In this document: positions 42,841 to 64,000 of the stretch, in pieces
Layout: every line of letters begins with the position of its first letter
Numbering within the stretch: position 1 is the first letter of the stretch
From: Podarcis gaigeae
Taxonomy: Eukaryota
DNA: 64,000 nt
Strand: one strand, 5' to 3'
Assembly: GCA_964106915.2 (NCBI GenBank)
Contig: OZ066918.1
The notes under the pieces: generated by a model
Told to the model about the DNA's origin: nothing
What the model saw: only the letters and a program-made list of their open reading frames with translations
Databases searched by the model: none
Position numbers and translations under genes: made by a program

Positions 42841-43298
42841 TTAATAAGTGGGCCGGGGCTCGCAGTTCGTGTAAGCGGCCTCTCCCGGGTGAGGTGACGG
42901 AGAGTTACTGGGTGGAGTCGGGATGCCGCTGGCCCCTGAGCTCTGACACACGTACCATTCGCTCAGGTTGGCTGCCGCCTGGGTGGAGGAAGCCGCTGCG
43001 GGAGGCGGTGGCGGCGGCGGTGGCGGCGGCGGCTGAGGGGGCTCCCGGCCGCAGTCCGACGACGGCGACACCAGCGACGGGGTGGACGACTCGTAGCCCG
43101 AGCTGGGAGGTGGGGACTTGCAGTGGACTTTCATGTGCTTCCGCAAAGAGCTGGGGTGCGTGTAGGACTTGTCACAGCCTCGCACTTTGCAGTTGTAGGG
43201 CTTGTCGCTGGTGTGCACGTGGGAATGCTTCTTCCTGTCGCTGCTGTTGGCGAAGCGGCGCTCGCAGCCCTCGAACTCGCATTTGAAGGGTTTCTCGC
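42841..43298 (-). CDS. ZIC4: ZIC4 second major coding exon: zinc fingers 4-5, Pro/Ala tract, NLSEWYV motif and C-terminal extension to TAA
   Basis: The acceptor ttttccttgcag|GC GAG AAA CCC restores G-E-K-P in phase with the upstream exon. [49 protein letters not shown] is ZIC4-type. Stop TAA is at 42843-42841. The joined CDS is 1192+458=1650 nt (549 aa). Confidence 0.97.
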
Positions 43299-48560: not shown

Positions 48561-49752
48561 CTGTGTGCGTCCTTTTGTGGATCTTGAGATTTTCCGAGCG
48601 AGCGAAGACTTTCCCGCATCCCGGGAAAGGACAAGGGAAAGGTTTCTCCCCCGTGTGGACTCGGATGTGGTTGACCAGTTTGTATTTGGCCTTGAAAGGC
48701 TTCCCTTCCCTGGGACACTCTTCCCAGAAGCAAATGTGGTTGGACTGCTCCGGCCCTCCAACGTGCTCCACGGTGACGTGAGTCACCAGCTCGTGCATGG
48801 TGCTGAAAGTTTTCGAGCATAATTTTTTGGGAGTCTGGTCCAGTTCGATCCACTTGCAGATGAGCTCCTGCTTGATGGGCTGCCTCATGTAGCGGAAGAA
48901 AGCCCCAGGGCCGTGGTGTGGAGCTAAATTCACGTTCAGGTTCATGCCACCGTAGCCGTGGAAGGAGGAAGCAGCAAAAGGATCTGTCCTGGAGACTGGT
49001 ACTGGCGTGAAAGGTTCAGACCTGGCATACATTTCTCCAGGTAGCCCCAGCCTTATCTGTCCGTTTAGATGGCCACCTGGAGCTGCATGGGGAGGTTGCT
49101 CATGGTGGAGTCCAGTAAAAAGCGAGGGAGTTCCGGCTTCTGAGTGGTGGTGGTGGAGGTGGTGGAGGTGGTGATGGTGAGCATGGTGTCCGGGGTAGCT
49201 ACCTGTTGTTGAGACAAACATTCCATGGTGAGAACCTGTAGCAGCAGAGTGTTGATAAGGGAGCCCTGGCATGACTGGGGCTGTCAGATCTCTGCGCAGG
49301 AAGAATTCCCTACCTGATGAAAGAGCATGACTTGGGTGAGGGACTGCGTAAGGGACTGTTGTTGACTGCGCTGGGCCAAATGCTCCTGCTGGACTGGGTA
49401 CCACCTCGGCTTGGCCTGTCACAGGATGGTGGGGATGAGGCTGAGGGGCAGGGCTGAGCTTAAGGGCCGCTGAGTGATGAGGAGGATGAGAGTGGTGGCG
49501 GTGGTGATGATGATGATGGAGAGGATGGTGGTGGTGCCCCATGTGTTCTGACCGGAATGGACTCAGCCCGAGGCGGCTTTCTGCAGCGTACTCCCCAGGG
49601 TGCGTGGGAACCATGGAGTGGGGATGCCCGGCGAAGCCTGTCATGCTCTGAGGGGAGTGGTGATGGTGGCGGTGATGACGATGACGAGGAGCCCCTGCCA
49701 AGCCTAGTAATTTCAGCGCCGTGTTCCGTTTGGAGAGTGAAGCAGAGTCCAT
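48561..49752 (-). CDS. ZIC4: ZIC4 major coding exon: long His-rich N-terminus, ZOC-like motif, ZF-NC and C2H2 zinc fingers 1-3
   Basis: The 398-codon ORF starts at CCA GTA ATG G (strong Kozak). It contains [17 protein letters not shown] (ZF-NC) and Zic fingers 1-3. The ZIC4-type N-terminus is [10 protein letters not shown]...PQSMTGF and RLGLPGEMY. The exon ends at ACA G|gttagt (phase-1 donor 48560-48559). Confidence 0.97.
49203..49313 (-). other. ZIC4: In-frame 111-nt exitron candidate inside the ZIC4 major exon
   Basis: Donor TCAG|GTAGGG (GT at 49313-49312) and acceptor tgtttgtctcaacaacag|GTAGC (AG at 49204-49203). The length is exactly 37 codons and it encodes GREFFLRRD...VSTT. Confidence 0.6.
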
Positions 49753-50149
49753 TACTGGGCTCCCCCAAAGCCTCCAAGCTCTCCTGGTTCTACTACAATT
49801 CTAAAAAGTCACCTGACGCCGAGGAGGGGGGAGCGAGGGAGAAAGAGGAAGAGGGAAAGAGCAGTGAAAAAACTTTTTTGAAAGTCCCCCCCCACCCGCA
49901 AAGAAAAAAAAGGTTTTCCCCTCCCTCTCTCTTGGTCTGGACTATTTGGCTTTGTTTTGTTTTTGCTCCCCGCTTCCCCCCCTTCCCCTTTCTTTTCTCC
50001 CCCTCCTCTTCCATTATTTTGTGTGTGTGTGTGTGTGTGTGTTTTTCCTCCTTCCTTTTTTTTTTAACGCCTACGTGGAATCCCATACGCTTTGAGAAGC
50101 AGCAGCAGGACGCTGGGAGGCTACTGAATAGCGCTTCACAGACTAGGCT

Positions 50150-57140: not shown

Positions 57141-57197
57141 GAATCATATATTGTCTTTGGGCTTTTTTTTTTTTAAGAAAGTCATATTTTAACTTAC

Positions 57198-57282
57198 TTG
57201 ACTGTCCCAGAAGGTTTCTGTAAAGTCTTTTTCTTCTCCTCATTACAGGGGGACCCTTGTGCCTTATTTTCTAACTTGGTTC
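57198..57282 (-). CDS. ZIC4: ZIC4 alternative upstream 85-nt exon (mammal-type first coding exon); coding part 57243-57198 = MRRRKRLYRNLLGQS
   Basis: Acceptor cttttctctcctgaacag|GAACC and donor TCA A|gtaagt (phase 1). It translates IRHKGPPVMRRRKRLYRNLLGQS, collinear with the recalled human N-terminus [23 protein letters not shown]. It is in phase with the internal acceptor at 49202. Confidence 0.85.
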
Positions 57283-60750: not shown

Positions 60751-61200
60751 GCGTCTCCCACCCCTTGATACCACTTCAGTCACTTACCCCACTCCACCTG
60801 TTGAAGCAGAGATCCCCTCATTTCTGCCTAGCATGTCAGAACTGATCAAAAAAAAGAAGAAAGTCGAAAGACAGAGGGAGACGAGAGGAGAGGCTGGGGG
60901 GGGGGTGGGATAGAGGGGGTAGCGTGGGCAGCGGTTGGATCAAACAAAACCAAAACACCTCTTGGGCGACTTCATCGAGGCGGTCATCCTTCATTTCTTC
61001 TTTTCTTGCTTTCTGGGAGCAGCTGGGGATTGTATGGAGAGGCAGAAATGAACCTTCAGGATGATATTTTAATGGCTTATATGTCACGTTGGTGCATGTG
61101 GCTTTGAACTGGAGCAGCTTTCGTTTCCTGCAGAGAGCATGCCGCAAATCCCACTTGATAACTTCTGCAGCCCACAACACTTGCACACAGAGCGCGCGCA

Positions 61201-63379: not shown

Positions 63380-64000
63380 TATATAAAAAGTTGCTACTCC
63401 TGTACAAGCCTGTTTGTCAAAAGCGATGTCAATGCGCTTCACAATACCTGGGATTGATGAGCTGAGCTGGCCAATCAGGAGAGAAGGAAGGTTTTGCGCA
63501 CCCTTAGTTGGAGAGGAAGGAGGGAGTTGCAAGCGAAAGTGGGAACTGCCAGGCACCAATGATCAGCGACGTCGGTCTTTACGTAGCTCCTCCTCCTTCT
63601 CCCATTCATCAAGGGGGGGACGGTGTCGTCTTTTCAATTCATTTATCTGCAGGAATGATTGCCGCTATCAGTCTCGCGTTCACCGCCCGGCTGAGGAGGT
63701 GAAAGTTTCTCCCCAGGAAGATAAACCGCAAAAGACAATATTGTGCATGATTTGCGCCGTTTTTTTTTTTTTAACAAAGCAGGGGGAAAAAAGGAAAGTG
63801 AAGGGGGAAAAAAGCCCAAGGAGGGGGAAAAGAGACGGAAGGGGGAAAAGAGTGCAAGAACTGGAAGAGAAGAGAAAATTGCTCGCTAGTCCGCTACATT
63901 CCTCTAGCCTCTTTTTTTAAATTAAAAAAAAAAACAGAACTGAAGGAAGTTTAATTTTTGTTTTGCTCCCCCCTCCCCCGTCTGAGCCTGTTTCCTCCTC
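63380..64000 (+). promoter_or_regulatory. ZIC1: ZIC1 promoter and 5' UTR (CDS beyond the window), head-to-head with ZIC4
   Basis: TATATAAAAAG at about 63380, GGCCAATCAG at 63469-63478 and CCAAT at 63556. ACAATACCTGGGATTGATGAG and CATTCATCAAGGGGGG...GATAAACCGCAAAAGACAATATTGTGCATGATTTGCGCC match the recalled mammalian ZIC1 5' UTR. The divergent ZIC1-ZIC4 arrangement is established. Confidence 0.85.
63655..63702 (+). CDS. Upstream ORF in the ZIC1 5' UTR, MIAAISLAFTARLRR*
   Basis: GGA ATG A context, 15 codons plus TGA, inside the apparently conserved UTR block. Confidence 0.45.
   Translation: MIAAISLAFTARLRR

Follow-up and report, generated by a model that had tools for sequence, protein, structure and literature searches.

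A 37-codon stretch carrying a ZOC-like motif in the first coding exon of lizard Zic4 is likely spliced out of some transcripts as an in-frame exitron

The Zic4 locus and a GT-AG segment within its first coding exon

The window, by which we mean the whole 64,000-nucleotide stretch of Podarcis gaigeae DNA analysed here, carries a gene that we identified as the Zic4 orthologue by its Pfam zf_ZIC domain, its ZF-NC region and top matches that are named ZIC4. The exons and the other features discussed below are listed in Table 1. The open reading frame of the proximal exon, on the minus strand, starts with an ATG at 49752 and extends to the constitutive donor (48560); the exon is identical to the Zic4 proteins of Podarcis raffonei and P. 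muralis at 396/396 and 395/396 aligned residues, respectively. A Zic1-like paralogue lies on the opposite strand in head-to-head orientation, approximately 1.2 kb beyond the end of the window, and such head-to-head pairing of Zic1 with Zic4 is described in the available part of PMC7403390.

Table 1. Features of the Zic4 gene in the window (a slash marks a splice border).
Feature	Position	Strand	Remarks
Last coding exon of Zic4	42841..43298	minus	Encodes zinc fingers 4-5 and the tail
Proximal first coding exon of Zic4, putative exitron kept	48561..49752	minus	N-terminus, ZF-NC, zinc fingers 1-3
Putative exitron	49203..49313	minus	111 nt, GT-AG, phase 1, 37 codons, stop-free
5' splice site CAG/GTAGGG	49308..49316	minus	Sits in the Ser-Gly-Arg codons with which the ZOC-like motif begins
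3' splice site ...CAACAG/GT	49200..49222	minus	In MFVSTTG codons; serves the exitron donor and the upstream exons
Candidate branch point CTCAC	49228..49232	minus	Predicted only; its A, at 49229, precedes the acceptor by 27 nt
Codons of the ZOC-like peptide REFFLRRD	49288..49311	minus	Aligns with the ZOC of Zic5 and Zic2
Upstream alternative exon	57198..57282	minus	ATG 57243; donor GTAAGT at 57197; P. muralis isoform X5 model
Further upstream exon	60959..61180 (5' border approximate)	minus	Matches the N-termini of bird and agamid models

The initial annotation had described a GT...AG segment of exactly 37 codons inside the coding exon, and this description is exact: the segment begins with GTAGGG and ends with ACAACAG, is preceded by TCAG and followed by GTAGC, and lies on the minus strand, which had not been given. 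In the fusion LSS-G-SYPGHH that was proposed to follow from its removal, a Gly codon is rebuilt over the junction, so that one Gly stays and the 37 residues that splicing would remove are those from REFFLRRD through VSTTG. The GC content of the segment is 0.514, versus 0.597 and 0.551 in the coding sequence on its two flanks.

With 172 GT..AG pairs in the exon that span 60-300 nt and preserve the frame, the GT-AG pattern alone is not beyond chance, and what raises this segment above chance is that the same two borders recur in 21/21 isoform pairs from single taxa (see below). By a crude score the donor matches the U1 consensus at 7/9 positions, which makes it joint best among the 39 GT sites of the exon. 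The acceptor is pyrimidine-poor and falls outside the best 14 of 74 AG sites when these are ranked by pyrimidine share, and the candidate branch point was picked out with the usual branch-point motif pattern. A 7-nt direct repeat, CAGGTAG, overlaps both borders, and RT-PCR alone would therefore not be decisive. No stable hairpin was found, the region folding no better than its shuffled versions (z +0.83; 157/200 shuffles as good).

Some further signals were seen around the borders. The acceptor side reads G/GTAGCT at 49202 (minus strand), a 7/9 match when scored as a donor, and the donor side, TTTCATCAG/ at 49314 (minus strand), has a better pyrimidine tract than that of the true acceptor; judged by these letters, each of the two borders could serve either splice role. 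An additional phase-1 acceptor-like site is present at 49236 (minus strand), and in one plover model the donor is joined to an inner site.

Isoform models, RNA records and the shared acceptor

Around 400 proteins were collected by protein searches and cluster look-ups, of which 287/399 were classified, covering 207 named taxa; Zic5, Zic2 and Zic1 rows were left out, as were fragments whose start lies beyond the junction and the majority of unnamed rows, and 7 were unplaced. Counted as taxa among the cluster members listed, at most 15 to a cluster, and not as frequencies of splicing, the retained form is present in 113/207 named taxa and is stop-free in all 113, and the spliced form, with the flanks fused at one Gly, is present in 67/207, from ray to opossum. 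It can be seen that the spliced form occurs in ray-finned fishes (36/69), amphibians (10/27), squamates (5/32), birds (8/33), turtles (3/9), marsupials (3/6), lobe-fins (1/2, the coelacanth) and cartilaginous fishes (1/11, one ray model only), and in 0/18 placental taxa. For every taxon that has both retained and spliced records (21/21), the two differ by a clean deletion of 30-37 amino acids running from R to TG, that is, the borders are constant over the 21 pairs and the length between them is 30-37 codons.

The X1 and X3 models of P. muralis, and likewise those of P. raffonei, differ by exactly the 37 amino acids of the window, the deletion being carried by XP_028587068.2 and XP_053246185.1, respectively, and the same junction is found in models of Xenopus tropicalis (XP_031758300.1) and Monodelphis (XP_056663492.1). 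In Chanos, Sminthopsis, Cygnus atratus and Mobula birostris, the protein entry that bears no isoform suffix is of the spliced form. Almost all of the spliced records come from automated gene models. Alternative models of this type usually rest on RNA-seq introns. Because models can be copied by protein alignment and because the taxa are related, the 67 taxa are not 67 independent observations. One spliced record is free of annotation, a 1278-nt Logan contig (P0296) of teleost-type Zic4 that has the last exon joined on. The 26 other members listed in two Logan-dominated fish clusters are all unspliced and are without the last exon, and a search of shorter proteins gave 2 matches, both fragments of the retained form, and no further annotation-free spliced record. 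The lengths in Logan clusters P0021 and P0031 had suggested spliced forms, a reading that was rejected because all of the members listed read through into the constitutive intron.

No splice junction was listed in the 8 lizard runs, which consist of reads at about 1x depth or of contigs. Four are raw RNA runs of a close relative, picked by species label, in which a joint was listed if it had at least 3 reads; two single-cell runs placed 9 and 9 reads on the locus, and two bulk runs placed 0 and 0. Among these 18 reads, one single read passes the acceptor unspliced, and the cover of one read ends at approximately 49204-49205, where a spliced read would end, although it was not counted as spliced. 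The other four are contig sets of uncertain type, which drop rare variants, may be DNA, and are no test of splicing: one gave a contig that runs unspliced through the whole stretch, one a contig that runs unspliced through the donor, one upstream sequence only, and one nothing.

The acceptor has users other than the exitron donor. An amniote-type upstream exon is joined to it in 35 taxa, and a mixed class of 19 taxa includes sharks, teleosts and frogs whose upstream N-termini are unrelated, along with a few misplaced rows. When exon 57282-57198 of the window is joined to 49202 the product is in frame and equals the P. muralis X5 model except for one residue, and this exon is the homologue of the exon that gives the placental (human-type) ZIC4 N-terminus. 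The proposal that the acceptor is the one at which the mammalian large exon starts holds, since both cat and opossum have upstream-exon forms whose junction falls on that same residue. The upstream-exon form is found across amniotes and not in mammals alone, and its exon lies inside this window.

The accompanying statement that ZOC is absent from mammalian ZIC4 is right for placentals (0/18 taxa with the motif) but not for marsupials, which keep it. Retained, spliced and upstream-exon models are all available for opossum, and two more marsupials have spliced models; we conclude that the loss of the motif is placental and not mammalian. The placental read-through models (6 taxa) keep a relic, LFVST(T)G, and the sequence upstream of it is without the motif, as expected if it is the splice site that is under constraint. 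The 113 of 207 named taxa with the retained form, the 67 with the spliced form together with the one contig, and the shared acceptor support the suggestion that the same DNA acts as protein motif, intron and alternative 3' splice site.

The ZOC-like motif and the constraint on its borders

The likeness of the deleted peptide to ZOC was upheld in part. It occupies the same columns of the alignment as the ZOC of Zic5 and Zic2, but neither of the two consensus strings given in the available part of PMC2988786 is matched in the window: the older one is (S/T)RDFLxxxR, where the window reads GREFFLRRD, and the revised one, RDFL-x(1,2)-RR, is missed by two conservative changes. The revised string was found in the Zic4 of ray-finned fishes (27/33), cartilaginous fishes (7/7), turtles (3/3), lobe-fins (2/2) and a marsupial (1/1), and in amphibians (3/21), squamates (0/25) and birds (0/17). 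The Zic4 motif shares position and alignment with the ZOC box of ZIC1-3, and Zic4 of fish, shark, turtle and opossum conforms to RDFL-x(1,2)-RR. The lizard motif is diverged (REFFLRR), and in Zic4 the motif lies within a removable segment.

A ZOC-like motif has been published for Xenopus Zic4 and mouse Zic5 (Layden et al., 2010, PMC2988786, available part), and ZIC4 and ZIC5 are stated to lack ZOC in the available part of Ahmed et al. (2020, PMC7403390). According to the same portions of these papers, ZOC raises the activity of Zic2 and binds a partner (PMC2988786), and deletion of the ZIC3 ZOC increases activity at an isolated site but not at a composite element (PMC7403390). ZOC, described in the initial annotation as a transactivation and interaction element, is thus not simply activating: it is repressive at the isolated ZIC3 site and depends on context; the ZIC2 and ZIC3 results suggest that its likely role is that of a context-dependent partner switch and not of a plain activation domain.

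Several possible losses touch the motif. Galliform Zic4 models (P0026, quail; P0027, pheasant) are without the donor Gly and without the ZOC core, and in a tegu Zic4 model (P0004) the Gly is replaced by Asp, a change that would abolish the GT; these are possible independent losses of the switch. In the Zic5-like gene of this genome (L004, G000:C8:24438858-24442046), no RDF motif precedes the MFISS stretch, and it appears that ZOC has been lost at the DNA level in the Zic5-like gene of this lizard, unlike in Zic5 of fish, shark and caecilian.

In the Zic4 of retained-form taxa the core of the motif drifts more than its borders. The border residues could be scored in 109/113 of these taxa, quail and pheasant being among the four unscored. 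The Gly that precedes the ZOC Arg is present in 108/109, the exception being the Asp of tegu, and TT-GS is present at the acceptor in 105/109.

The homologous stretch of Zic5 is uninterrupted in 30/30 proteins, a teleost-heavy set whose members are not independent. Here the position of the Gly is occupied by Ser in 22 proteins, Gly in 6, Asn in 1 and Ala in 1. Five of the 6 Gly cases are sharks and rays, in which Gly-Arg and TT-GS are also found, and we accordingly rejected the idea that the Gly is an invention of Zic4. The occurrence of Gly in shark and ray Zic5 suggests that Gly-Arg and TT-GS probably predate Zic4, and that the splice sites likely arose in pre-existing codons; it also means that part of the conservation of Gly-Arg and TT-GS may be at the protein level. 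Within this genome no phase-1 GT was found near the ZOC of the Zic1/2/3-like genes, and no AG at the position homologous to the acceptor in the Zic1-like and Zic5-like genes. The four paralogues of this genome that were examined read through uninterrupted, with no trace of introns once present at these borders (a 'splicing memory').

Interpretation, precedents and the termini of Zic4

We consider it very likely that, in a portion of Zic4 transcripts, the 37-codon stretch of the first coding exon is spliced out as an in-frame exitron. The splice choice is likely to be conserved across bony vertebrates and probably across all jawed vertebrates. In transcripts presumed to start at the proximal exon, the donor would lie in Ser/Ala-Gly-Arg codons and the acceptor in Thr-Gly-Ser codons, such that unspliced transcripts would give Zic4 with the ZOC-like motif and spliced transcripts the same protein minus 37 residues. 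Transcripts that begin farther upstream, towards the head-to-head Zic1-like gene, would skip the proximal exon and use the same acceptor to give a third form, with a short N-terminus and without the motif. The borders, the frame, the upstream exon and the three model forms can be read directly from the sequences and records, and we infer that the spliceosome uses the donor in the lizard.

Because Zic5 carries the homologous stretch uninterrupted, the stretch would have been coding before it was spliced, making this a likely case of intron gain inside coding sequence. In placentals the proximal exon likely decayed with the acceptor preserved, and this would account for the absence of ZOC from human-type ZIC4. 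By extension from the work on ZIC2 and ZIC3, the likely effect of the splice choice is that a partner-binding, context-dependent motif is switched on or off with DNA binding left intact.

The Zic4 segment resembles the in-frame (EIx3) exitrons of Arabidopsis and human in several respects set out in the available part of Marquez et al. (2015, PMC4484396): both splice sites lie inside one coding exon, the sequence is stop-free when kept, its length is a multiple of 3, its GC content is below that of the flanks, and a short linear motif is removed. It differs from them in that its acceptor doubles as a standing 3' site for upstream exons. The jawed vertebrates have a depth of approximately 450 My. 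The conservation that the models suggest for the Zic4 exitron over this group may be set against the 20 My given for Drosophila Or88a in the available part of PMC10990081. One case that extends from plant to human, EIF4A, is reported by Marquez et al. (PMC4484396, available part), and the Zic4 exitron would therefore be deep but not a record.

It is rather unlikely, in our view, that the segment is better viewed as a normal short intron that separates an alternative first exon from exon 2 and is sometimes retained, with the spliced form as the main product. Such an intron would fit the use of the 3' site as a standing acceptor for other exons, and the existence of spliced-only models, but what is retained encodes conserved protein, its counterpart being an uninterrupted coding stretch in every Zic5 protein of the set, and it has no stop in any retained-form taxon. 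The distinction is largely a question of naming, as an ordinary intron overlaps with the exitron that we propose and does not exclude it.

For the donor, the main alternative is that of tolerated noise copied through annotation: the acceptor would be real, the donor would be used at a low and unselected level, and automated annotation would have spread the spliced form. The lizard runs gave no junction reads, only one spliced record is annotation-free, the donor residue is lost in tegu and galliform models, and Gly-Arg is older than Zic4, all of which would be in keeping with noise. We nevertheless regard it as decidedly unlikely, because the Gly is held in 108/109 taxa even where the core has decayed beyond the strict consensus, as in all 25 squamates and 17 birds, because the same position is free to vary in Zic5 (Gly in 6/30), and because in several species (the four named above) the suffix-free entry is the spliced form.

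Lastly, it is highly improbable that the short form is a reverse-transcription artefact (falsitron), in which slippage between the CAGGTAG repeats gave a product that entered assemblies and models: falsitrons such as CD19 exon 2 do share a short direct repeat at their borders with Zic4, 35/57 falsitrons and approximately 75% of reported cancer exitrons have such repeats (Schulz et al., 2021, PMC8240250, available part), and all of the evidence for the short form is cDNA-based or model-based, but falsitrons are defined by having no canonical GU-AG, and the questionable exitrons were without U1 complementarity (same part of PMC8240250), whereas the Zic4 segment has canonical, U1-matching sites with a donor that is joint best in its exon, no stable hairpin or fold better than shuffles, an acceptor that is used by distant upstream exons without such a repeat, and borders that stay constant as the length between them varies.

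The exitron reading can be taken further, to a stronger proposal that we put forward tentatively and would call possible rather than probable. According to this, a regulated switch as old as the jawed vertebrates would toggle Zic4 between forms with and without ZOC by means of splice signals within the codons of the motif itself; placentals would have frozen it in the off position by abandoning the proximal exon, galliforms would have lost the motif independently, and the textbook rule that Zic proteins of subclass B are without ZOC would be a placental special case.

The exitron class, the isoform in automated annotation and the ZOC-like motif of Xenopus Zic4 were already known. RefSeq isoform models of Zic4 encode the very same junction without interpreting it: they tie it neither to ZOC or conservation nor to how placental ZIC4 arose. 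No published description of this splice event was found, nor any paper that joins Zic4 with an exitron, although Tohmonda et al. (2018), Houtmeyers et al. (2013), Aruga (2006) and Fujimi (2006) may mention Zic4 isoforms, and the available text of the ZOC papers PMC2988786 and PMC7403390 contains no mention of this splicing. Apparently the Zic4 exitron is implicit in automated annotation and has not been interpreted in print. If it is regulated, it would rank, for exitrons of developmental transcription factors, as one of the more deeply conserved, and would offer an evolutionary path by which the ZOC-less human-type ZIC4 could have arisen. It would also make the role of ZOC directly testable in vivo, as synonymous edits at one codon in fish or frog would lock Zic4 in one form or the other with the sequence of the protein unchanged. 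A note of warning is that experiments on fish, frog and mouse Zic4 used different N-termini.

Some observations concern the two ends of the protein. The start MSVDALGSPV, which is shared by fish, frog, bird, turtle and opossum models and is taken as ancestral, appears decayed at 49753-49790 (minus strand), where the first ATG is changed and there is one extra G; squamate models begin at the next Met. A TAG at 57271-57273 (minus strand) stands in the frame that runs from the 61-kb exon into the 57-kb exon, and suggests that the longer, bird-type upstream N-terminus is interrupted in the lizard and would restart at the ATG at 57243. In the last exon an internal donor-like site, ATG/GTACGT, is present in EWYV codons at 42949-42957 (minus strand); NLSE is where the models of Podarcis, Liasis, Pogona and Discoglossus end, which fits a stop built by splicing, and a third P. 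muralis Zic4 tail also appears. Finally, positions 63559-63803 on the plus strand, opposite to Zic4, strongly match in translation the N-terminus of an owl model (P0066); this is probably conserved sequence upstream of the Zic1-like gene that has been annotated as protein.
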